Below, in pieces: positions 6,512-25,034 of a stretch of DNA of 64,000 bases. A program made the translations under genes and the position numbers. Under the pieces are notes generated by a model. That model searched no databases. It was not told where the DNA came from and was given only the letters and a program-made list of their open reading frames with translations. This stretch comes from Candidatus Rokuibacteriota bacterium (GTDB taxonomy: Bacteria > Methylomirabilota > Methylomirabilia > Rokubacteriales > CSP1-6): positions 14,843 through 78,842 of the forward strand of contig QHSA01000133.1 in assembly GCA_003220315.1 (NCBI GenBank), read 5' to 3'. The first letter of the stretch is position 1, and the number at the start of each line of letters is the position of its first letter.

Positions 6512-7267
6512 CTACACCCCGAGCCCCCCTCGACGGGCGCCGGCGTGCGCCGCCAACCCGAGGTAGGCGGCACGGACGCGCGGGTCCTCACCGAGCTCCT
6601 GGCTCGTCCCCGCGACGACGACGCGACCCGTCTCGAGCACGTAGCCGCGGCTCGCGAGCCGGAGCGCCCGGCGCGCGTTCTGCTCGACGAGCAGGACGGC
6701 CACGCCCGTCGCGTTGATCCGCTGGATGGTTCGGAAGATCTCGCGCGAGAGCATCGGCGCCAGGCCGAGCGAGGGCTCGTCGAGCAGGAGCAGGCGCGGC
6801 CGGGCCACGAGCGCCCGGGCGATCGCGAGCATCTGCTGCTCGCCGCCGGAGAGCGTGCCCGCGAGCTGGCGCCGCCGCTCGCGCAACACGGGGAAGAGCT
6901 CGAACGCGTCCTCGAGTCGCGCCGCCAGGTCGCGCCGGGGAACCGTATGGCCACCGACGAGCAGATTCTCGAGCACGGTGAACTCGACGAAGACGTCGCG
7001 CCCCTCCGGCACGTGCCCGACACCGGCCGCGACGATCCGGTCCGCGGGCTCACGCGTGATGTCGCGCCCCTCGTAGAGCACGCGGCCTTGCGCGGGCCTC
7101 ACCAGTCCCGAAATCGTTCTCAGCGTCGTGGACTTGCCACTGCCGTTCGCCCCGAGGAGCGCGACGATCTCGCCGCGGCCCACCGTGAGCGAGACGCCCT
7201 CCACCGCGCGGCGCTTGCCGTAGGACACCGCGAGGTCCTCGACCGCGAGCGTCGCCGGCATCCTCAT
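6512..7267 (-). CDS. livF: Branched-chain amino acid ABC transporter ATP-binding protein LivF
   Basis: Walker A GANGSGKST, signature LSGGEQQML, Walker B LLLLDEPS. Start ATG 7267 (MRMPATLAVEDL) preceded by GAGGCGAGCC and overlapped by the TGA of the R2 mini-ORF. Confidence 0.9.
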   Translation of the reverse strand: MRMPATLAVEDLAVSYGKRRAVEGVSLTVGRGEIVALLGANGSGKSTTLRTISGLVRPAQGRVLYEGRDITREPADRIVAAGVGHVPEGRDVFVEFTVLENLLVGGHTVPRRDLAARLEDAFELFPVLRERRRQLAGTLSGGEQQMLAIARALVARPRLLLLDEPSLGLAPMLSREIFRTIQRINATGVAVLLVEQNARRALRLASRGYVLETGRVVVAGTSQELGEDPRVRAAYLGLAAHAGARRGGLGV

Positions 7268-7391
7268 AGGCTCGCCTCGCACGGCGGGGCCGATTTGTAT
7301 CGCTCGCCTCGGGCCTGGGGGCCCCAGCCCCCGGTCGGCCCTGCGGCTCGCCCTGCGGCCCCGCGACGTGCTGCGGCTCGCACTGCCATCC
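7264..7391 (-). repeat. R2-family intergenic element forming a 41-codon mini-ORF between livG and livF
   Basis: ATG 7389 lies 2 nt after the livG stop (TGA 7392-7394). The mini-ORF MAVRAAARRG...PPCEASL ends with TGA 7264-7266 overlapping the livF ATG (ATGA). Shares CTGCGGCTCGCACTGCCATC and GGCGAGGCGAG blocks with 14117-14228 and 23602-23868. Confidence 0.7.
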
Positions 7392-8153
7392 TCAGTCGTC
7401 CTCGCGGCCCAGATAGGCCTCGACCACCGCCGGCTCGACGGCGATCGCGCGCGGCTGGCCCTCGGCGATCTTCCGCCCGTAGTTCAGCACGGCCACGCGG
7501 TCGGAGACGCCCATCACGAGCTCCATGTCGTGCTCGACGAGCAGGATCGTGAGCCCCCGCTCGTCCCGCAGCCGCACGATCAACCCCATGAGCGCCTGGG
7601 TCTCGGTGGGATTGAGGCCGCCGGCGGGCTCGTCGAGCAGCAGGAGCCTGGGCTCCGCGGCGAGCGCGCGCGCGAGCTCGAGGCGCTTCTGGAGCCCGAG
7701 CGGCAGGCTGCGCGCCTCGACGCCGGCCTGGCCCTCGAGCCCCAGGCGCGCCAGGAGCGCGCGCGCGGTCGCGCGCGCCGCGCCCTCCTCCCGAAGGACC
7801 GCGGGGAGCCCGAGCGCGCCGCGGAGCGCGCCCGCGCGGAGGTGGGCGTGGCAGCCGATCAGCACGTTGTCGAGCACGGTGAGCTGGCGAAAGACCTCGG
7901 TGTTCTGGAAGGTGCGCGCGATCCCGCACCGCGCGATCGCGTGCGGTCCCATGGCCAGGAGGTCACGGCCGAGGAAGGTGACGCGACCGGACGCGGGGCG
8001 TTCGAGGCCGGTCACGATGTTGAAGACCGTCGACTTCCCCGCCCCGTTGGGGCCGATCAGCGCCACGATCTCCCGCGCGGCGACCTCGACGGAGAAGCCA
8101 CTCAGCGCGGCGAGGCCGCCGAAGCTGATCGAGAGGTCCTCGACGCGGAGCAC
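7392..8153 (-). CDS. livG: Branched-chain amino acid ABC transporter ATP-binding protein LivG
   Basis: Walker A GPNGAGKST, LSLGLQKRLELARAL signature region, Walker B LLLLDEPAGG. Confidence 0.9.
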   Translation of the reverse strand: MLRVEDLSISFGGLAALSGFSVEVAAREIVALIGPNGAGKSTVFNIVTGLERPASGRVTFLGRDLLAMGPHAIARCGIARTFQNTEVFRQLTVLDNVLIGCHAHLRAGALRGALGLPAVLREEGAARATARALLARLGLEGQAGVEARSLPLGLQKRLELARALAAEPRLLLLDEPAGGLNPTETQALMGLIVRLRDERGLTILLVEHDMELVMGVSDRVAVLNYGRKIAEGQPRAIAVEPAVVEAYLGREDD

Positions 8154-8159
8154 CGCGCG

Positions 8160-9323
8160 CTACTCGGCCCTGAGCCAGTCGGTGAGCTGCTTGAAGCGGC
8201 CCCGCTCCACGCGCACCCAGAACCCCTGCCGCTGGGTCTCGTGGTCCGGGCCGATCGTGACCGGCGGCAGGATGCCGCTCTCGAATCCACGGATCCCCTC
8301 GAGCGCGACGACGAGTCCCTCGCGCGTGAGGCGGCGGCCCGCGCGCGTGGCGCCCTCCGTGAAGAGCATCGCCGCGAAGTAGCCCGAGAGGGAGTAGCGG
8401 TTGGGCTCGTTCTTCGGGAGGTACGTCTTTAAGTCATCGCGATATCGCTTGACGCCCGGCCGGTCCGAGGTCAGCGGGTCGGGCCAGAGCGACAGTCCCT
8501 CGACGCCCTCCGACGCGTCTCCCGCGAGCGCGAGGTAACGCTCGTCGGTGAGCGGGCCGGAGGAGACCATGACGACCTCGCTCCAGCCGATCTTCTGGCG
8601 CTCGCGGAGCGCCTGGGCGCCCGGGCCGGGCGTGAGGACGAGGAAGAGCACGTCGGGCCTGGCCGCCTGAAGCTTGGCCATCTGGGCGCTCACGTCGGTG
8701 ACGCCGCGCTTGACCGACTCCGTCGCCACCAGCTTGAGCCCGTGGCGCCCGAGGTCTTTCTCGAGGGCGGTGAGGAACGACTTGCCGTACTCGTCGTCCT
8801 GGTAGAGCGTCGCGAACTTCCCGAACTTCCGCGCGCCCACGAGGTAGTCGATCATCATGCGCGACTGCCGGTCGTAGAGCGTCATCCCGCTGAAGACCCA
8901 CTTCCGCCCGCGCGTGATCGGCGAGCCCTGGAACGGGAAGAGCAGCGGGACACGGTTCTCCTCGAGGTACTCGAGCGTCGCCACCACCGGCGGCGTGCCC
9001 TGCGGGGCGATGATCGCGAAGACTCCATCCTGCTCGAGGAGCTTCCGCGTGTTGGCGACCGCCTCCTGCGGCTTGTAGCCGTCGTCGTAGTACACCGTCC
9101 GCACCTTCCGGCCGTGGATGCCCCCGCCGTCGTTGACGGCCTTGAAGTAGAGGTCCACCCCGAACCTCGTCGCCTGCTCGCCCGTGAAGGCGAGCGGGCC
9201 CGAGAACGAGTTCGAGCCGCCGAGCAGGATCTCGGCGTCGGTCACGCCCTGCTGCGCCCGGGCGGGCAGCGGAGTGGCGCCCGTGGTGAGGCCCGCGATG
9301 ACGAGGGCCAGGAGGACTCGCAT
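8160..9323 (-). CDS. Branched-chain amino acid ABC transporter substrate-binding protein (paralog 1)
   Basis: 387 aa, signal peptide MRVLLALVIAGLTTGATPLPARA; about 75% identical to the next gene upstream. Confidence 0.9.
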   Translation of the reverse strand: MRVLLALVIAGLTTGATPLPARAQQGVTDAEILLGGSNSFSGPLAFTGEQATRFGVDLYFKAVNDGGGIHGRKVRTVYYDDGYKPQEAVANTRKLLEQDGVFAIIAPQGTPPVVATLEYLEENRVPLLFPFQGSPITRGRKWVFSGMTLYDRQSRMMIDYLVGARKFGKFATLYQDDEYGKSFLTALEKDLGRHGLKLVATESVKRGVTDVSAQMAKLQAARPDVLFLVLTPGPGAQALRERQKIGWSEVVMVSSGPLTDERYLALAGDASEGVEGLSLWPDPLTSDRPGVKRYRDDLKTYLPKNEPNRYSLSGYFAAMLFTEGATRAGRRLTREGLVVALEGIRGFESGILPPVTIGPDHETQRQGFWVRVERGRFKQLTDWLRAE

Positions 9324-9344
9324 ACGTCGTCTCCTTCTCGTCGG

Positions 9345-10505
9345 CTACTCCGACTTGAGCCAGTCGGTGAGCTGCTTGAAGCGGCCCCGCTCCACACGCA
9401 CCCAGACCGCCTGCTTTTGGGTCTCGTGGTCCGGGCCGATGGTGAGCGGCGGCAGGATCCCGCTCTCCCAGCGCTTGACGGACTGGAGGGCGGCGATCAA
9501 CGACTCGCGGGTCAGCCGGGCCCCCGCGCGCGTGGCGCCCTCCGCGAAGAGCATCGCGGCGAAGTAGCCCGCGAGGGAATACCGGTTGGGCTCGTTCCGC
9601 GGGAAGTAGTTCTGCATGTGCTCGCGGTAACGCCGCACGCCTGGCAGGTCCGAGGTGAGCGGGTCGGGCCAGAGCGACAGCCCCTCGACACCCTCGGCAG
9701 CGTCGCCGGCGAGCGAGAGATACCGCTCGTCGGTGAGCGGGCCGGTGGACACCATGAGCGTGTCGGTCCAGCCGATCTTCTGCCGCTCCCTGAGCGCCTG
9801 CGCGCCCGGGCCGGGTACGAGGACCAGGAAGGTCACCTCGGGCTTCGCGGTGTGGAGCTTGGCGATCTGGGCGCTCACGTCGGTGACGCCGCGCTTCACC
9901 GATTCGACCGCGAGCAGCCTGAGGCCGTGGCGCGCCAGGTCCTTCTCGAAGGCCGTGAGGAACGACTTGCCGTACTCGTCGTCCTGGTAAAGCGCGGCGA
10001 ACTTCCTGTACTTTCGCCGACCCACCAGATAGTCGATCATCATCCGTGACGAGCGGTCGCTCATCGTCATGCCCTGGAAGACCCAGTGCCGGCCGCGCGT
10101 GACGGTCGAGCTCTGGTACGGGAACAGGAGCGGGACACGGTTCTGCTCGAGGTACTCGAGCGTCGCCACGACCGGTGGGGCGCCCTGCGGGATGATGACC
10201 GCGAACACCTGGTCCTGCTCGACGAGCTTGCGTGTGTTTGCCACCGCGTCCTGCGGCTTGTAACCGTCGTCGTACCAGATCGTCCGCACCTTCCGGCCGT
10301 GGATGCCCCCGCCGTCGTTGACGGCCTTGAAGCCGAGATCCACCCCGAACTTCGTGATCTGCTCGCCCGTGAAGGCCAGCGGGCCCGAGAACGAGTTCGA
10401 GCCGCCGAGCAGGATCTCGGTGTCGGTGACGCCCTGCTCGGCGCGCGCCGGCGCCGCGACCATCACGACGAGGGCGAGCAGCGGAAGGAGCCATCCGGAT
10501 CTCAT
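9345..10505 (-). CDS. Branched-chain amino acid ABC transporter substrate-binding protein (paralog 2)
   Basis: Start ATG 10505 (MRSGWLLPLLALVVMVAAPARA), overlapped (ATGA) by the stop of the R1 mini-ORF; the ORF-track N-terminal extension is repeat-derived. Confidence 0.9.
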   Translation of the reverse strand: MRSGWLLPLLALVVMVAAPARAEQGVTDTEILLGGSNSFSGPLAFTGEQITKFGVDLGFKAVNDGGGIHGRKVRTIWYDDGYKPQDAVANTRKLVEQDQVFAVIIPQGAPPVVATLEYLEQNRVPLLFPYQSSTVTRGRHWVFQGMTMSDRSSRMMIDYLVGRRKYRKFAALYQDDEYGKSFLTAFEKDLARHGLRLLAVESVKRGVTDVSAQIAKLHTAKPEVTFLVLVPGPGAQALRERQKIGWTDTLMVSTGPLTDERYLSLAGDAAEGVEGLSLWPDPLTSDLPGVRRYREHMQNYFPRNEPNRYSLAGYFAAMLFAEGATRAGARLTRESLIAALQSVKRWESGILPPLTIGPDHETQKQAVWVRVERGRFKQLTDWLKSE

Positions 10506-10740
10506 GGTCGTTCTCCTTGTAGCGGGGTCCGCGAGCCCGGCGCCATCGGTGGGTGGCCTGAGACCAGGCGCGCCCCGGCTCCGGTCCCCCTGCCGCCGCT
10601 CATTCCAGTCCACGCCGCGAGCCCGGCGCCATCGGTGGGTGGCCTGAGACCAGGCGCGCCCCGGCTCCGGTCCCCCTGCCGCCGCTCATTCCAGTCCACG
10701 CCGCGAGCCCGGCGCCATCGGTGGGTGGCCTGCCCACCGT
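10502..10740 (-). repeat. R1-family tandem repeat (86-bp unit x ~2.35) forming chained mini-ORFs between livM and the SBP gene
   Basis: Units 10531-10616 and 10617-10702, plus a partial unit 10703-10732 that lies inside the livM 3' coding end. The livM TGA (10686-10688) overlaps ATG 10689 of a 28-codon mini-ORF (MSGGRGTGAGARLVSGHPPMAPGSRRGLE). Its TGA overlaps ATG 10603 of a 33-codon mini-ORF whose TGA (10502-10504) overlaps the SBP ATG 10505. Confidence 0.8.
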
Positions 10741-12529: not shown

Positions 12530-13014
12530 CGGACGCGCGCGACGAAGCGGCAGGCCGGCGCGCCGGTCGCCGCGCAGGCCGTCTCGGTGGCGACGGCGGG
12601 CGCGCCGAGCGCCACCTCGGCGAGCCGCTCGAGGACGCCGCGCGTGAGGTGACACACCGGCGTCACGGCGGCGCCGTACGCCCGGGCGAACGGCGAGTTC
12701 CGTACGCTGACCACCAGCTCGTCCGACCCGAGGCGCTCGAGCGCGAACGCGCCCCAGCCGATCTCGCCGCCCATCGCCAGGAGTCGCGCGACGATCTCCT
12801 CCGCCGCGCCCTCGAGAGCCTGGAGCGCCGTGCCGCCGCCCGCCCGGCCGCCCGCGGCGAGGCACGCCGCGGCGCGCTCGCCCAGCACCGCCTCGACCGC
12901 CTTCTGCAGCGCGACGAGCGTCTCGGGGCGCACGAGGAGATAGCACGACCCCTGGTAGGTGAGGCCGCCCGCGCCATCGGCCTCCACCCTCGACGGCACG
13001 CGGTCGGCGGTCAC
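12526..13014 (-). CDS. V4R (4-vinyl reductase) domain protein
   Basis: 162 aa from GTG 13014 (GTGA overlap with upstream gene); C-terminal region resembles the V4R small-molecule binding domain; start is uncertain. Confidence 0.55.
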   Translation of the reverse strand: MTADRVPSRVEADGAGGLTYQGSCYLLVRPETLVALQKAVEAVLGERAAACLAAGGRAGGGTALQALEGAAEEIVARLLAMGGEIGWGAFALERLGSDELVVSVRNSPFARAYGAAVTPVCHLTRGVLERLAEVALGAPAVATETACAATGAPACRFVARVR

Positions 13015-14120
13015 TGGATCGCCTTCCGCCACATCGGCGAGGCCCACCCGTCCCGGAGGAACGCAAGAATCTCGCGCCGGCTCAGGTCGCCGAGCCCCAG
13101 GTGCTCGAGCGCGCGGCCGCGGCCCGAGAGCTCGCGCCCGAGCAGCGCGCCGTACACGAGAAGGAGCCCCGTGATCGCGGGCGTCACCGCGCCCGCCGCC
13201 CGCGCGGCCGACTCGAGGAGCGCCAACCCGAGAACCGCGTCCTCGGTGACGTAGCGGTGCTCGAACGTGACGATCTCGCTCCAGAGGCCGCTCGCCACGA
13301 GTTTCGTCTTCGCCCCGGCGCCGTAGAGCCCCTCGGCCGCCCGCGTCTCGTCGTAGTACGTCGCGAGCTCGTAGTGGGGCGCCGCGTAGCCCCAGCCCCG
13401 GCGAGTCGCGACCCGCTCGGCGTCCACGGCGTCGATGAGCCGGCGCACGCTCGGCGTCGTGCCAGCCGCGTGGACGTCGAAGCTGCCACCGTCGATCGCG
13501 CCGGTATTCAGGAGAACGAGCGGGGGGTGGATCACGGGCCCGGCGTTGGTGAGCGCGACATCGAGGGAGTCCGCGCACGGGCGGACGGCCGGGAAGAGCT
13601 CGGCGAGCCGCGGCAAGACGCGCGGGCCCCGCGACGCGGGAAACACGCCGATCGGCAGGTTGGCGGCGCGCAGGGGCGCCTTGACGACCGCGGGCGCCGT
13701 CTTCCGCGTGAGATAGGGCAGCGTCCCGGTCTCGGCGAGGGCGAGCGGTAAGGGGCCGCCGGCGCGCGCAATCCCCCGCGCCATCGCGTAGCTACCGAGC
13801 GTTCCCGGTGTGAGCAGGATGATCTGTCGGTCGTTGAGACACGGCGCCAGGCGCTTGGCGAGCTCCTCGTGGCTCGTCGCGGGTAGCGGGACGATCAGGA
13901 CCTCCGCGCCCTCGACCGCCTCGCCGAGGTCGGTCGTGGCGCGCTCGAGCTGCGCCGTCCCGTGCCGCCCCTCGGCGTCGAGCGTGATCGTCGCGCGCTC
14001 CACGAGCGGGCCGAGCGCGTCCGCCGAGCGGCTCCAGAGCCTGACGCGGTGGCCGGCCAGCGCGAGATCGGCCGCCGTCGCGAAGCCACCATTGCCCGCG
14101 CCCAGGACTGCTAGCTTCAC
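13011..14120 (-). CDS. NAD/NADP-dependent octopine/nopaline (opine) dehydrogenase family oxidoreductase
   Basis: GTG 14120 gives MKLAVLGAGNGGFATAADLALAGHRV, a classic Rossmann N-terminus of the opine dehydrogenase family. The GTG is overlapped by the TGA of the R2 mini-ORF. Confidence 0.7.
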   Translation of the reverse strand: MKLAVLGAGNGGFATAADLALAGHRVRLWSRSADALGPLVERATITLDAEGRHGTAQLERATTDLGEAVEGAEVLIVPLPATSHEELAKRLAPCLNDRQIILLTPGTLGSYAMARGIARAGGPLPLALAETGTLPYLTRKTAPAVVKAPLRAANLPIGVFPASRGPRVLPRLAELFPAVRPCADSLDVALTNAGPVIHPPLVLLNTGAIDGGSFDVHAAGTTPSVRRLIDAVDAERVATRRGWGYAAPHYELATYYDETRAAEGLYGAGAKTKLVASGLWSEIVTFEHRYVTEDAVLGLALLESAARAAGAVTPAITGLLLVYGALLGRELSGRGRALEHLGLGDLSRREILAFLRDGWASPMWRKAIQ

Positions 14121-14228
14121 AGACTCGCCTCGCCTGTGGCTGCGGCTCGCACTGCCACGACGTTCATAAGCTCGCCTCGCACGGCGGGGCCCCAGCCCCA
14201 CGACGTGCTGCGGCTCGCACTGCCATCA
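14117..14228 (-). repeat. R2-family element forming two chained mini-ORFs (20 and 16 codons)
   Basis: The CoA-transferase TGA (14226-14228) overlaps ATG 14226 (TGATG). Mini-ORF1 MAVRAAARRGAGAPPCEASL ends with TGA 14164-14166 overlapping ATG 14167 of mini-ORF2 MNVVAVRAAATGEASL. Its TGA 14117-14119 overlaps the GTG 14120 of the next gene. Confidence 0.7.
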
Positions 14229-15419
14229 CGCCACGACTCCGGCGGCGCGCAGCTCGGCGATCCGCGCGGCGGAGTATTCGAGGACACCGCCGAGCACGGC
14301 CTCGGTGTGCTCGCCGAGTGTGGGCGGCGGCGCCGTCTCGAGCCCCATCGCGCCGTCCACCTTGACCGGCGTGCCGAGCGCCGGGAGCTTGCCGTGGACC
14401 GGATGCGCCGTCTCGAGGACCATGCCGCGCTGGCGCACCTGGGGGTCGGCGAGGACGCGATCGACGGAGCGGATGGGCGCGCCGGGCACGCCCTCCGCCC
14501 CGAGCCGCGCGAGCCAGTCGTCGGTCGTCCGCCGGCGGAAAGCGGCCTCGATCAGCGGGACCAGCACGCCACGGTTCGCGACGCGATCACGATTGGTCCC
14601 GAAGCGCAGGTCGCGCTCCCACTCCGGGTGCTCGACCACGCGGCAGAACCCCGACCAGAACTTCTCGGCGAAGACGGCGACGACCAGGTGACCATCACGC
14701 GTCGCGAGGGCCTGATAGGGGACGACCGAGGCGTGGCTCGAGCCGAGCGGCCCGGGGACGCGACCGTTCGTCCAGAAATACTGCGCAATATACGTGAGGA
14801 GCGAGACCTGGCAGTCGAGCAGCGACAGGTCGAGGTGGGCGCCCTCGCCAGTCCGCTCGCGACGGAAGAGCGCTCCGGCCACCGCAAACGCGCCGAAGAT
14901 CCCGCCCGTGAGGTCGCCCATCGGCAGGCCCATGCGCACCGGCGCCCTCCCCGGCTCGCCCGTGATGGACATCGCCCCGGCCATCGCCTGGAGCGCCAGG
15001 TCGAAGGCCGGCCAGTCGCGATACGGCCCCTCCTGGCCGTAGGCGGAGATCGAGCAGAGGATCACGCGCTGGTTGAGGGACCAGAGCTTGGAGTACGCGC
15101 AGCCGAGACGCTCCATCACGCCGGGGCGGAAGTTCTCCCAGACGACGTCGGCCCGACGGACGAGGTCGTAGAAGACCTCGCGCCCGGCATCCCTGGTGAG
15201 GTCGAGCGCGACGGACTTCTTGCTGCGGTTGATCGCGAGGAAGTACGCCGACTCGCCGTCGGCGAGGAACGGCGGACCCATGACCCGCATCGGGTCGCCG
15301 CCGTCGGGGTCCTCGATCTTGATCACCTCGGCGCCCATGTCGGCGAGCAGCATCGAGCCGTACGGCCCCGCGAGCATGCGGGAGAGGTCGAGCACGCGGA
15401 CGCCCGCGAAGAGCTTCAC
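14226..15419 (-). CDS. CoA-transferase family III (CaiB/BaiF-like)
   Basis: MKLFAGVRVLDLSRMLAGPYGSMLLADMGAEVIKIE, the canonical family III N-terminus. Confidence 0.9.
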   Translation of the reverse strand: MKLFAGVRVLDLSRMLAGPYGSMLLADMGAEVIKIEDPDGGDPMRVMGPPFLADGESAYFLAINRSKKSVALDLTRDAGREVFYDLVRRADVVWENFRPGVMERLGCAYSKLWSLNQRVILCSISAYGQEGPYRDWPAFDLALQAMAGAMSITGEPGRAPVRMGLPMGDLTGGIFGAFAVAGALFRRERTGEGAHLDLSLLDCQVSLLTYIAQYFWTNGRVPGPLGSSHASVVPYQALATRDGHLVVAVFAEKFWSGFCRVVEHPEWERDLRFGTNRDRVANRGVLVPLIEAAFRRRTTDDWLARLGAEGVPGAPIRSVDRVLADPQVRQRGMVLETAHPVHGKLPALGTPVKVDGAMGLETAPPPTLGEHTEAVLGGVLEYSAARIAELRAAGVVA

Positions 15420-15467: not shown

Positions 15468-15716
15468 ATGAGTATTGTAAAGCGCGTCCGCACGCGCGGC
15501 CGCACGCGGATCAGTGCGAAGAACCAGACGACGATCCCGGTCGCCGCGCTCAGGCGCGCCGGGCTCAAGCCCGGGGACGAGCTGCGGGTGGAGGCTGCCG
15601 GCGCGGGCCGCATCGTTCTCACCCGGGTCGAGGAGACGCTGGCCGGCTACGCCGGCCGCCTGACGGGAGTGTATCCAAAGGGATCCCTACAGAAATTGCG
15701 CCGCGAGTGGCGATAG
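15468..15716 (+). CDS. vapB: VapB/AbrB-MazE family antitoxin
   Basis: 82 aa; SpoVT/AbrB-like swapped-hairpin N-terminus (RISAKNQTTIPVAALRRAGLKPGDELRV); overlaps the downstream PIN gene. Confidence 0.8.
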   Translation: MSIVKRVRTRGRTRISAKNQTTIPVAALRRAGLKPGDELRVEAAGAGRIVLTRVEETLAGYAGRLTGVYPKGSLQKLRREWR

Positions 15717-16096
15717 TCGTCCTCGACGCGAGCATCGTCATCGCGTTCCTCGACGCGCGCGACCCGCACCACGCCGCCGCGGTCGCGGCCGTCGGCCAGT
15801 CCCGCCGGGAGGAGCTGGTCCTACCGTCGAGCGCGTACGCCGAGGTCCTCGTCGACCCCTGGCGCCGCGGACCCGACGCGGTCGCGGTCGTCAGGCGACT
15901 CGTGACCGACGTGGGCATCCGCATCGAACCGCTCAACGAGCAGATCGCCGAACGCGCCGCCAGGCTCCGGGCCCACCACCGCGCGCTCCGGCTTCCCGAC
16001 GCGCTCGTGCTTGCGACCGCGGATGCGCTCGACGCCACCGCCTTCACGTGCGACCGGTCGTGGCAGCGCCTGAGCCGTCGGGCCCGGGTCGTCTGA
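15707..16096 (+). CDS. vapC: VapC PIN-domain toxin
   Basis: GTG start overlapping vapB by 10 nt; IVVLDASIVIAFLD... PIN acidic residues (D, E, D) present. Confidence 0.8.
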   Translation: MAIVVLDASIVIAFLDARDPHHAAAVAAVGQSRREELVLPSSAYAEVLVDPWRRGPDAVAVVRRLVTDVGIRIEPLNEQIAERAARLRAHHRALRLPDALVLATADALDATAFTCDRSWQRLSRRARVV

Positions 16097-20378: not shown

Positions 20379-20652
20379 TGTAGCGAAGTCCGCGAGGCCG
20401 GCGCCATCGGTGGGTGGCCTGAGACCAGGCGCGACCCGGCTCCGGTCCCCATGTCGTGTCTCATTCCAACAGGGTCCGCGAGGCCGGCGCCAGCGGTGGG
20501 TGGCCGTCGGACTGACCGCCCTTCGAGCGCGGGCTTCGCCCGCGCAACCGATCCTGGGGGAGGCTCGGAGGGGGCCGTCGAGGCCCCCTTCGATGAGGTG
20601 GGTGGCCTGAGACCAGGCGCGACCCGGCTCCGGTCGTCCCGGCGCTATTCAT
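20375..20652 (-). repeat. R1-family element (two units, the distal one interrupted by a nested R3 element) forming 63- and 29-codon chained mini-ORFs
   Basis: ATG 20652 lies 2 codons before the metallophosphoesterase TAG (ATGAATAG). Mini-ORF1 reads through R1-partial, R3 and R1 to TGA 20461-20463, which overlaps ATG 20464 of mini-ORF2 (MRHDMGTGAGSRLVSGHPPMAPASRTSLQ). Its TGA 20375-20377 overlaps GTG 20378 of the B12 subunit. Confidence 0.75.
20496..20607. mobile_element. R3 MITE-like element (92 bp) with 10-bp direct target duplication GTGGGTGGCC, nested in R1
   Basis: Insert 20506-20597 flanked by GTGGGTGGCC at 20496-20505 and 20598-20607. Two internal hairpins (GCGCGGGC-TTC-GCCCGCGC; GGGGGCC-GTCGA-GGCCCCC). 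A near-identical copy (3 differences) sits at the same position of a diverged R1 at 27445-27556. Confidence 0.7.
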
Positions 20653-22645: not shown

Positions 22646-23604
22646 TGGTACGCAGCGTCCTCTCGCACCCGCCTGAGCTGCCGGAGCAGCGCACGGACCT
22701 TGGCGGTCTCGAACGTCTCGCGCCGGTCGCCGGCGTAGTCGAAGAACCCGCGCCCCGTCTTCGGGCCGAGCTCTCGCCTCGCGATCTTCTCCTCGACCAG
22801 GCGCGCCGGCTTGAAGCGGTCGTCACCGAGCGCGTCGGCGAGGAAGCGGCTCGCACGGTGGAGGATGTCCACGCCGCCCCAGTCGATGAACTCGAAGATC
22901 CCGACCTGCGCGTAACGGAAGCCCATCCCCGCCCTGAACGCCCGGTCCACGTCCTCGGGCGACGCGACGCCCTCCTCGACGAGGCGGACCGCCTCGTTCA
23001 TGAGCAACGCCTGTAGCCGCGGCCCGATGAACCCCGGCGAGTCGGCGCACCGCACGGGGACCTTCCCGAGCGCCTCGAGGACCTCGATGGCGCGGTCGAC
23101 GACGGCGGCCGTGGTCGCCTGGCCGGCGACGACCTCCACGAGCGGGACGATGTGGGCGGGGTTGAGCCAGTGCGCGACGAGGAAGCGCTCCGGACGCTCT
23201 ACCGCGTCGGCGAGGTGCCTGGGCGCGATCGTCGAGCTCGTCGAGGCGATGATCGCCCCGGCGCCGACGCGGGTCGAGAGGCGCCCCAGCACCTCGCGCT
23301 TGAGGTCGAGCAGCTCCGGCAGCGCCTCCTGCACGAAAGCGCACGCGTCGAGGCCGTCGAGCCCCGTGCGGTCCTCGATCCGGTCGAGCGCCGACGCGAC
23401 GTCGCCGCCCGCGATCACACCCTCCTCGGTCATGAGCCGGAGGTCGCGGGTGATCTCGCGCCGCGCGTCGGCGAAGACGGCGCGCCGCTCCTCGGGCGTG
23501 CGGGCCTTGACGTCGACGAGGAGGACACGGCGCCCGCCCAAGGCGAAGGCGAGCGCGATCTGGCGCCCGATCCTCCCGGGGCCGAGAACCGCGACTGTAT
23601 TCAT
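22642..23604 (-). CDS. 3-hydroxyacyl-CoA dehydrogenase (NAD-binding, HBD/FadB-type)
   Basis: MNTVAVLGPGRIGRQIALAFALGG Rossmann N-terminus; C-terminal 3HCDH dimerisation domain; ATG 23604 is the last start of the R2 tandem array. Confidence 0.9.
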   Translation of the reverse strand: MNTVAVLGPGRIGRQIALAFALGGRRVLLVDVKARTPEERRAVFADARREITRDLRLMTEEGVIAGGDVASALDRIEDRTGLDGLDACAFVQEALPELLDLKREVLGRLSTRVGAGAIIASTSSTIAPRHLADAVERPERFLVAHWLNPAHIVPLVEVVAGQATTAAVVDRAIEVLEALGKVPVRCADSPGFIGPRLQALLMNEAVRLVEEGVASPEDVDRAFRAGMGFRYAQVGIFEFIDWGGVDILHRASRFLADALGDDRFKPARLVEEKIARRELGPKTGRGFFDYAGDRRETFETAKVRALLRQLRRVREDAAYQ

Positions 23605-23868
23605 AGACTCGCCTCGCCGGCGGCTGCGGCTCGTACGACCACGTTCATAGACTCGCCTCGCCGGCGGCTGCGGCTCGTACGACCACGCTCATAGACTCGC
23701 CTCGCCGACGGCTGCGGCTCGTACGACCACGTTCATAGACTCGCCTCGCCGACGGCTGCGGCTCGTACGACCACGTTCATAGACTCGCCTCGCCGGCGGC
23801 TGCGGCTCGTACGACCACGTTCATAGACTCGCCTCGCCGACGGCTGCGGCTCGTACGACCACGTTCAC
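23602..23868 (-). repeat. R2-family 44-bp tandem array (6 ATG units plus 1 GTG unit), each unit a 15-codon mini-ORF
   Basis: Unit CATAGACTCGCCTCGCCG(G/A)CGGCTGCGGCTCGTACGACCACG(T/C)T at 44-bp period, with start codons at 23604, 23648, 23692, 23736, 23780, 23824 (ATG) and 23868 (GTG). On the minus strand each unit reads (M/V)NVVVRAAA(A/V)GEASL-TGA, with the TGA overlapping the next ATG (ATGA). The thiolase TGA (23865-23867) overlaps the first GTG; the last TGA overlaps the dehydrogenase ATG. Confidence 0.85.
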
Positions 23869-25034
23869 GCCGGTTCGCGCCCGTAAATCATCACGACGTG
23901 CTCGCCCATCCCGCTGTTGTTGTGCGTGAGCCCGATCGCCGCGCCGGGCACCTGGCGGGCGCCGGCCTCGTCGCGGAGCTGGACGAAGACCTCCGCCGCC
24001 TGGGCGACGCCGGTGGCGCCGAGCGGGTGACCGCATCCGATCAGCCCGCCGCGCGGGTTCACGACCACGTCGCCGCCGTAGTCGCCGCGCCCCGCGGCGA
24101 CGAACGCGCCCGCCTCGCCCTTGCCGCAGAAGCCGAGCTCCTCGCACGCAATGAGCTCCGCGATCGCGAAGCAGTCGTGTACCTCGGCGAGGTCGACCTC
24201 GCGCGGCGCGATGCCGGCCATCCGGTACGCGGCCTGCGCCGCACGCCTGAGCGCGGGCCACTGGGCGTAGTCCTCGTGGAGCGAGGTGAGCTGGAAGCCG
24301 TCCAGCGCCTGGCCCGTCCCTCGGATCCAGACCGGCTTGTCGGTCAGCCCGCGCGCCCGCTCCTCGCTCGCGAGGATCACCGCCGCGGCGCCGTCGGTGA
24401 TCGGCGAGCACATGAACAGGCGCAAGGGCGTCGCGATCATCCGCGAGCCGAGCACCTGGTCGAGCGTGGCGCCCTTGTTGAAGTGGGCGTTCGGGTTCTT
24501 GGCGGCATGGGTATGGTTTTTCACGCCGACCATCGCGAGCTGCTCCTCGGTCGTCCCGTACGCGGCCATGTGGCGCTGGGCCGCGAGCGCGAAACAGGGC
24601 GGCGCCGTGAGCCCGAAGGCCGCCTCCCACTCGCGGTCCACCCCGGTGCCCATGTTGAGGATCGCCTCCTCGCCCGTCGGCGCGTTGAGCTTCTCGACGC
24701 CGAGCACCATGACGAGGTCGGCGAGCCCCGCGGCGATGAAGGCGTACGCGTAGCGGATCGCGACGGTGCCCGAGGCGCACATGTGCTCGGTCCGCGCGCT
24801 GAGCGCGCTCGGCTTGATTCCGAGCGCCTCGGCGGCGAGCGAGGAAATATGGGACTGGAAGGCCGTGCGCTCCGGCATCACGGAGCCGACGACGAGACCC
24901 TCGACGTCCTTCGGCTTCACCGCAGGGATCGAGTCGAAGCACGCCTTGCCCGCCTCCCAGATGAGGTCGCGGTAGCTCGCCCGGCGCACGCCGAACTTCG
25001 AGACCCCCGCGCCGACCAGCGCGACTCGTCTCAT
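23865..25034 (-). CDS. Thiolase-like protein (SCP2-type thiolase / lipid-transfer protein family)
   Basis: 389 aa; MRRVALVGAGVSKFG N-terminus; active-site Cys region (EHMCASGT); C-terminal GCGHPLGATG. Confidence 0.9.
   Translation of the reverse strand: MRRVALVGAGVSKFGVRRASYRDLIWEAGKACFDSIPAVKPKDVEGLVVGSVMPERTAFQSHISSLAAEALGIKPSALSARTEHMCASGTVAIRYAYAFIAAGLADLVMVLGVEKLNAPTGEEAILNMGTGVDREWEAAFGLTAPPCFALAAQRHMAAYGTTEEQLAMVGVKNHTHAAKNPNAHFNKGATLDQVLGSRMIATPLRLFMCSPITDGAAAVILASEERARGLTDKPVWIRGTGQALDGFQLTSLHEDYAQWPALRRAAQAAYRMAGIAPREVDLAEVHDCFAIAELIACEELGFCGKGEAGAFVAAGRGDYGGDVVVNPRGGLIGCGHPLGATGVAQAAEVFVQLRDEAGARQVPGAAIGLTHNNSGMGEHVVMIYGREPA

Follow-up and report, generated by a model that had tools for sequence, protein, structure and literature searches.

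Among short repeats at operon junctions that couple a small open reading frame (ORF) of their own to the next gene, the interspersed repetitive units of mycobacteria (MIRUs), reportedly treated by Supply et al. 1997 (Mol Microbiol 26:991), are so far the one textbook case, and a synthetic arrangement of similar build, the bicistronic design (BCD) translation cassettes, is said to come from Mutalik et al. 2013. Here, we describe a repeat that we treat as being of the MIRU kind in a 64,000-nucleotide stretch of a Candidatus Rokuibacteriota genome (assembly GCA_003220315.1, contig QHSA01000133.1, positions 14,843 to 78,842 of the forward strand), which is called the window throughout and to which all coordinates refer. 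The element is located between a CoA-transferase gene and an octopine-dehydrogenase-family gene and at two further junctions of the window. It is probably a short interspersed repeat of Rokubacteria/Methylomirabilota that resides in coupled junctions and whose mini-ORFs would pass ribosomes from one gene to the next. The BCD cassettes resemble it by a leader cistron of about 15 codons, by the Shine-Dalgarno (SD) sequence of the next gene near the 3' end of the leader and by a leader stop codon that overlaps the next start. In BCD the translating ribosome delivers itself downstream and removes secondary structure, as it may in the Rokubacteria element. However, BCD cassettes are engineered, present in single copy and placed behind a promoter, rather than natural, mobile or tandemly expandable.

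MIRUs are described as 40-100-bp repeats that are present in about 40-50 copies per genome and transcribed within polycistronic mRNAs; the same source reports that the ends of the MIRU ORFs overlap the adjacent genes and that the comparison of filled and empty sites shows tetranucleotide direct repeats (PMC3184786). MIRUs are also said to insert at start codons with the MIRU ORF coupled at -4 spacing, an arrangement that probably keeps the effect on expression minimal (PMC12548453). Moreover, copy-number variation of MIRUs may change the expression of the downstream gene (PMC3635867).

The junction between the CoA-transferase and the dehydrogenase gene consists of the following features, which are all encoded on the minus strand, as are all genes that surround it:

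14226..15419, minus strand: CoA-transferase family III gene (upstream; Pfam PF02515, E 2e-130), with the stop codon TGA at 14228-14226
14117..14225, minus strand: insert relative to the empty junction, a 105-nt spacer plus a second GTGA copy, holding two repeat units
14164..14229, minus strand: mini-ORF 1, MAVRAAARRGAGAPPCEASL, a long-type unit whose start overlaps the CoA-transferase TGA and whose stop is TGA 14166-14164
14179..14208, minus strand: optional hairpin module within the long-type unit, GCACG..GUGGGGC-UGGG-GCCCCGC-CGUGC
14117..14167, minus strand: mini-ORF 2, MNVVAVRAAATGEASL, a short-type unit of 16 codons from ATG 14167-14165 to TGA 14119-14117
14121..14134, minus strand: 3' module GGCGAGGCGAGTCT, in which GAGG lies 7 nt before the GTG start as a modest SD sequence
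13011..14120, minus strand: octopine/opine-dehydrogenase-family NAD(P) oxidoreductase gene (downstream; Octopine_DH PF02317 plus Rossmann N-terminal families)

The CoA-transferase stop codon is overlapped by ATG 14226-14224 (TGATG), and the in-frame GTG 14229-14227 also makes GTGA, which gives mini-ORF 1 a length of 20 codons from the ATG or 21 codons from the GTG. The TGA of mini-ORF 1 is overlapped by the ATG of mini-ORF 2, and the TGA of mini-ORF 2 is in turn overlapped by GTG 14120-14118, the start codon of the dehydrogenase gene. The initial annotation had proposed this two-step relay from the letters of the window, and upon re-reading of the sequence its coordinates and translations turned out to be exact to the base. 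The downstream gene encodes a protein of 369 amino acids with the N-terminus VKLAVLGAGNGG; its orthologues begin with MKIAVLGAGNGG and VNVAVLGAGNGG, and a gene caller independently picked the same GTG start in six other assemblies. A protein identical to the CoA-transferase is encoded on 9 other contigs. The unit that forms mini-ORF 2 matches the family profile with an E value of 4.5e-13, and the hairpin module of mini-ORF 1 was also found in many long-core copies of other genomes.

Two unlinked junctions of the window carry related copies:

7259..7394, minus strand: LivG to LivF locus, TGAGGATG, a nested long-type element and TGAGGATG, with one 41-codon mini-ORF (7389..7264)
23601..23868, minus strand: locus between a thiolase-like gene and a 3-hydroxyacyl-CoA dehydrogenase (HADH) gene, six 44-nt units, each of which is a 15-codon mini-ORF

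The copy at 7.3 kb is flanked by two branched-chain ABC ATPase genes (LivG-like and LivF-like); its mini-ORF starts 2 nt past the LivG TGA, and the closing ATGA supplies the annotated start of LivF. The array at 23600-23867 comprises 6.1 copies of 44 nt with 97% matches according to TRF, and its chain begins with GTGA at the thiolase TGA and continues with six ATGA steps, of which the last TGA overlaps the ATG of HADH. The three loci are related in nucleotide sequence, and to an extent that goes well past GC-rich low complexity. The resemblances that the initial annotation had pointed out were recovered as well: mini-ORF 2 and the 44-nt unit of the array share 82-86% identity, and mini-ORF 1 has both ends in common with the copy at 7264-7391. 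Of the element's two motifs, one is present 11 times in the window and the other 9 times, compared with 1.3 and 0.8 occurrences expected from shuffles. With a profile built from 61 distinct units, copies were detected at no more than three places, namely 7264-7394, 14116-14232 and 23600-23868, each of them on the minus strand. The stop/start geometry at the three unlinked junctions was confirmed from the sequence. At 7284-7364, a long-type element is nested in the hairpin loop of another one, with the arms GCGGGGCCG and CGGCCCCGC separated by 63 nt; in an alternative LivG-LivF allele (L136, L139) a short A-type unit is nested instead.

The comparison of filled with empty sites shows that the element was inserted into the overlapping stop/start junction (RTGA) of coupled operon genes and that the junction is now repeated on both sides. 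At the CoA-transferase/dehydrogenase junction, metagenomic orthologues with 88, 77 and 66-69% identity have the empty sites GGC-ATGA-AG, GC-GTGA-AC and CG-ATGA-AC, and contig L171 has GTGA, whereas the filled one-unit site reads GC-GTGA-[TGGCAGTGCGAGCCGCAGCCACAGGCGAGGCGAGTCT]-GTGA-AG, that is, 37 nt plus a repeated RTGA. For the LivG-LivF junction, the empty sequence GACTGAGGATGCC had been predicted beforehand from the occurrence of TGAGGATG on both sides of the filled site (TGAGGATG-[120 nt]-TGAGGATG), and the orthologues in L167-L170 (95% and 89% identity), which have TGA-gg-ATG, match it exactly. The thiolase-HADH junction is empty in L172-L174 (orthologues with 92, 90 and 84% identity), where the genes share a GTGA overlap. 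The border repeats at the filled sites thus comprise RTGA (4 nt) at the CoA-transferase/dehydrogenase and thiolase-HADH junctions and 8 nt at the LivG-LivF junction. The net inserts measure 41, 47 and 128 nt, each of which is 2 mod 3; the 109-nt allele with two links is 1 mod 3, as must be the case for two links. Microhomology-driven copying accounts for this variation in border length no less well than a transposase would. A miniature transposable element with inverted repeats (MITE) was considered and rejected: no terminal inverted repeats were found, there being no inverted pair of at least 8 nt in 14100-14245, and the length of the border repeats is not fixed, being 4 nt in two cases and 8 nt in the remaining one.

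It was also shown that units are gained and lost, giving alleles that resemble a variable number tandem repeat (VNTR). Alleles were compared among contigs that encode identical flanking proteins and that derive from NCBI metagenome-assembled genomes (MAGs) and from the Eel River Critical Zone Observatory (CRIT18) soil metagenomes. Most assemblies carry a one-unit allele at the CoA-transferase/dehydrogenase junction (37-nt gap, one 13-codon ORF, TGATG..GTGA), and the two-unit allele is present in the window and in L005. At the thiolase-HADH junction there are alleles with one unit (40-nt gap), two units (84-nt gap) and six units (260-nt gap), of which the 6-unit figure could be imprecise because the copy numbers come from short-read assemblies. 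The LivG-LivF junction occurs in a 124-nt and a 102-nt form. The latter is 22 nt shorter, which is not a multiple of three, and has an extra internal GTGA that gives two mini-ORFs, and its chain still reaches the LivF start. An unbroken chain into an independently called start was found in 14 of the 14 distinct alleles at the three junctions. The sister contig WNFT01000102.1 (GCA_009772195.1; L001, positions 1-23) stops just upstream of the HADH start within the 44-nt array; thus, the tandem repeat appears to break short-read assemblies, and copy numbers from MAGs are approximate.

The repeat unit comprises 37 nt with the consensus TGGYNGTR-CGAGCCGCAGCC-NNN-GGCGAGGCGAG-YCT, to which a 21-nt hairpin module may be added. 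Its RTG lies at or adjoins the preceding stop codon, its closing TGA overlaps the next RTG, and each insert or unit has a length of 2 mod 3. In a scan for SD sequences that compared 56 operon gene starts with the modules of the element, GAGG was found 7 nt upstream of the closing RTG in every unit. The family was searched in one genome per prokaryotic species with the two halves of the core, a free inner gap and no requirement for ATGA. The spacing of the family (26-27 nt, or 47 nt with the hairpin module) was found in about 35 Rokubacteria/Methylomirabilota MAGs and in two contigs binned elsewhere, and the family totals about 50 sites in about 35 genomes, across which the 21 specified bases of the core are identical. 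Where the inner spacing differed, the matches (in Actinobacteria, Proteobacteria and further phyla) fell within genes and were regarded as due to chance. Close homologues of LivF are likewise labelled Candidatus Rokuibacteriota. As to a plasmid or phage origin, blastn against plasmid and phage collections gave no match to the element, and no paper that joins the terms Rokubacteria, repetitive and intergenic was found in the literature. The initial annotation had favoured a dispersed element over chance, which agrees with the three related loci, the phylum-wide spread, the relay in every allele and the three empty sites.

The family can be divided into three subfamilies. Subfamily A, to which the copies of the window belong, has the form RTGAAYGTGGnnGTR-core-YCTRTGA, subfamily B the form GTGATTGG-core-CGGATA..ATGA and subfamily C the form GGTAGGG-core-CGAAnATGG. 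At subfamily C and TAG-stop sites (L029, L034, L061, L066, L111 and others), the TAG of the 5' GGTAGGG is the stop codon of the upstream gene and there is no mini-ORF. The 5' end of the internal unit, ATGAACGTCGTGGC (14150-14167), matches at 13 of 14 bases the first codons of the dehydrogenase, GTGAACGTCGCGGTC and ATGAACGTCGCCGTC, as they occur at the starts of the Rossmann-fold dehydrogenase orthologues at empty sites (L155 and L159/L164). This similarity hints that the repeat family may have arisen from a duplicated gene start.

The orientation of the element relative to its neighbours was determined with a caller based on codon-usage likelihood that had been validated on known strands. Between two co-directional genes, 30 copies have the same orientation as the genes and 7 the opposite one (p 2e-4), with ratios of 13:1 in subfamily A (p 0.002), 12:1 in subfamily B (p 0.003) and 4:4 in subfamily C. 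The stop codon of the upstream gene is mostly located 5-23 nt before the core, within the 5' end of the element. At sites from different species, a strict in-frame chain leads to the downstream gene in 10 of 11 cases for subfamily A and in 6 of 10 for subfamily B. The failures are mostly TAG-stop sites, because TAG cannot overlap a start codon. Among the core-length variants, +6 keeps the strict relay, and +4 and +1 end the mini-ORF 3-9 nt short of the gene start. Coupling is the local norm in these operons: of the 53 junctions between co-directional genes, 23 are -4 or -1 overlaps, and the overlapped downstream gene often has no recognisable SD sequence.

The relay may work as follows. A ribosome that finishes the CoA-transferase would reinitiate on mini-ORF 1 at the overlapping RTG, would then terminate first on the start of mini-ORF 2 and later on the GTG that opens the dehydrogenase gene. 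Each step would thereby restore the ancestral -4 geometry of coupling, and insertion would be near neutral for downstream expression. Moreover, translating ribosomes could keep the GC-rich spacer open, and slippage or recombination would account for gain and loss of units. Each step may lose some ribosomes, in which case copy number could tune the downstream output.

Several observations speak against this relay. We infer the translation of the mini-ORFs and the reinitiation from geometry alone, and the GAGG at 7 nt is a match of only 4 nt to the SD sequence. Subfamily C has neither an orientation bias nor a relay. Copy L037 and the TAG-stop B sites are co-oriented and have no start for a mini-ORF; they must use the GAGG of the element for de novo initiation, so the relay is not obligatory. 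Copy numbers, as mentioned above, depend on short-read assemblies. Furthermore, mononucleotide shuffles of the spacers, with the gene borders and the spacer length fixed, yield a complete chain in 82% (37 nt), 75% (40 nt), 16-19% (84-105 nt), 5-6% (102-124 nt) and 8.6% (260 nt) of cases; for the 105-nt spacer between the CoA-transferase and the dehydrogenase gene the figure is 19%. The chain alone is therefore weak evidence, and its completeness was dropped as a significance test. Any xTGA in which x is not C is formally a start, which makes a -1 overlap cheap. In stop-poor DNA with 70% GC, the multi-step look of the relay is thus largely a by-product of repeated units, and the chains within an array are not independent because its units are copies of one another.

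The same observations could be accommodated by a passive spacer with its own ribosome-binding site, where initiation would occur de novo at GAGG-N7-RTG and the mini-ORFs would be an untranslated by-product of RTGA borders and stop-poor, GC-rich DNA. In its favour, every unit has GAGG 7 nt before RTG, shuffles that hold the borders and the length constant yield the chain at rates of 5-80%, and L037 (a plain 36-nt spacer carrying GAGG and a start codon) and several B sites without a mini-ORF start occupy the same position. However, we regard this explanation as unlikely, as it does not account for three features. The lengths and indels are kept in the class that ends the ORF at or just before the next start (41, 44, 47, 59 and 128 nt; +6; the compensated -22 allele), two subfamilies keep the relay in different frames, and the first unit regularly brings an RTG to within 0-9 nt of the upstream stop. 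Four facts are informative: repeats border the inserts at ancestral overlaps, lengths fall into set classes, alleles are compensated, and orientation is biased. The empty sites count as evidence as well, and the real constraints are the insert length (2 mod 3 per link) and the RTGA at both borders. The initial annotation had also raised independent promoters inside the elements as a source of downstream expression. No sigma-70-like promoter or intrinsic terminator was detected in the elements at 13900-14500 and 23400-24100 in a scan that covered the sigma-70 consensus only and left the 7.3-kb locus outside; the possibility thus receives no support at the two scanned loci.

Functional micropeptides, or leader peptides regulating the operon, could in principle be the products of the mini-ORFs, which possess start codons, defined stops and an SD-like GAGG upstream; the peptide AVRAAA..GEASL also recurs in subfamily A. 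However, subfamily B reads the core in another frame (MIGEPQPKARRAD; GEPQPKARRAD), and the recurrence in subfamily A thus reflects nucleotide conservation. The codon usage of the mini-ORFs is also far from native: they score -4.1 to -4.7 per codon as opposed to -3.40 +/- 0.26 for genes, and their other two frames score no worse. Moreover, the differences within the array are non-synonymous (V/A, N/S), and the copy number ranges from 1 to 6 between near-identical strains. We therefore consider a peptide-based function extremely improbable. As the peptides are not conserved and their codons are non-native, it is the architecture that matters and not the product, and codon usage and frame switching support the view that the peptides would be without function of their own.

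Small G+C-rich intergenic repeats are also represented by the repetitive extragenic palindromes (REPs) and bacterial interspersed mosaic elements (BIMEs), by Neisseria REP2 and by the Borrelia inverted repeat (IR) (PMC3184786). According to the same source, the ribosome-binding site and ATG of REP2 and IR become the start of the adjacent gene (PMC3184786), which is comparable to the 3' end of the Rokubacteria element. The differences are that REPs are palindromic, occur in both orientations and are often located past the ends of operons; that REP2 and IR carry promoters and lie upstream of genes rather than between coupled cistrons; and that none of the three is described with a stop-to-start ORF relay (PMC3184786). 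In subfamily C and some long copies, the core is preceded on its 5' side by GTAG, which is similar to the tetranucleotide at the 5' end of REP elements.

A structured element of the REP/BIME or MITE type, which would act on mRNA or DNA as a stabiliser, processing site or protein-binding site with the frames being irrelevant, would be in line with this GTAG just 5' of the core in many copies of other genomes, with the G+C hairpin of the long form that can house a nested copy and with the identity of the 21 specified core bases in about 35 genomes. However, the fold of the short unit does not surpass that of shuffles (z -0.64 and +0.48), and the fold of the long unit does so only marginally (z -1.45 and -1.58; -31.8 kcal/mol for 14164-14228, z -1.45). 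Terminal inverted repeats are lacking, and a search of the whole window against Rfam gave no match at gathering score, nor did 13900-14450 yield one at E<=1. The strong orientation bias with the genes is unlike that of REPs, and the GTAG/GTGA position acts as the stop codon of the upstream gene. Taken together, a structured element is very improbable. The identification as a structured RNA was rejected on account of the missing Rfam match and the shuffle-like fold of the short unit. The stable stem-loop expected of a REP/RAYT-type palindrome was not found in the short unit; only the optional module is a hairpin.

In many respects, the Rokubacteria element resembles the MIRUs. Both are direct repeats that occur singly or in tandem, here with periods of 41-59 nt and an array of 6.1 x 44 nt, the 37-nt core being slightly under the 40-100 bp of MIRUs. 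Both are dispersed over unlinked intergenic sites in operons, here about 50 sites with a co-orientation of 13:1 (A) and 12:1 (B), and both have small ORFs that overlap the flanking stop and start codons at -4 spacing, here as TGATG/GTGA, ATGA and GTGA. Filled sites show short direct repeats in comparison with empty sites, here at all three junctions, and copy number is polymorphic between strains in the manner of a VNTR, here at three junctions, the large counts being approximate because of short reads. The benefit proposed for both is an insertion with little effect on the downstream gene. The differences concern the host, which is Rokubacteria/Methylomirabilota and not Mycobacterium, the shorter unit (37-47 nt), the construction from modules, of which the optional hairpin can take up nested copies, the reading of one core in different frames by subfamilies of which a third lacks the relay, and the border repeat of 8 nt instead of 4 nt at one site. 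Because every MIRU feature that could be tested was found, the element is classed with the MIRU-type repeats. It is treated as a member of the MIRU kind and not of the MIRU family by descent, the comparison being one of features. The relay logic is already known from MIRUs; the element adds an independent and cleanly documented example in another phylum.

The window contains a second, unrelated repeat of 86 nt, which is present in 2.4 tandem copies at 10504-10732 on the minus strand, where it separates a BPD_transp_2 permease gene from one for a periplasmic binding protein, with further copies near 20390, 20578, 27356 and 31469. It forms a relay like that of the present element. Here, the permease TGA (10688-10686) lies within GGAATGAGC and is followed by a 29-codon ORF, ATGA, a 33-codon ORF and ATGA at ATG 10505, where the binding-protein gene starts with an AAGGAG SD sequence and a signal peptide. 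At the orthologous permease/binding-protein junction of L169 (7928-8069; AR20 MAG, QHSX01000042.1), a unit of the 86-nt type holds a reversed core like that of the present element (CTCGCCTCGC..GCTGCGGCTTCG). Copies of the two families thus occur nested within one another, and a reversed orientation is tolerated where the spacer is longer and untranslated. Tentatively, and with more doubt than confidence, one may go further and imagine phylum-wide mobile cassettes for translational coupling that target stop/start overlaps through a machinery recognising the invariant 26-nt core. The gain and loss of units would be a heritable rheostat that sets how much downstream protein is made relative to upstream protein, the cassettes would be a convergent counterpart of the MIRUs, and the unrelated 86-nt family would obey the same rule.

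Two further observations concern the neighbourhood. A VapBC-type toxin-antitoxin pair (15468-16096, plus strand), composed of a MazE/AbrB-like antitoxin ORF (15468..15716) and a PIN-domain ORF, is inserted between a Mo-hydroxylase gene and the CoA-transferase gene on the strand opposite to both. The pair is present in close relatives and absent from L171, where the Mo-hydroxylase and CoA-transferase genes overlap directly. At 8160-10494, the window has two tandem paralogous genes for periplasmic binding proteins, with DNA segments that are 81-90% identical and 1185 nt apart; the AR20 relative (L169) has a single gene of this type.

The finding has consequences for annotation, because the start codons of such genes may come from a repeat, and for assembly, because the arrays break contigs, as seen for WNFT01000102.1, whose end lies within the array of 44-nt units. 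The loci would be natural expression-variable sites in soil populations if the number of copies sets the level of downstream translation. Moreover, an independent example in a deeply divergent uncultured phylum, in which empty and filled sites are cleanly distinguished at three junctions, together with a second unrelated repeat, suggests a general rule: where operons rely on overlapping stop and start codons, only inserts that pass ribosomes on can persist.

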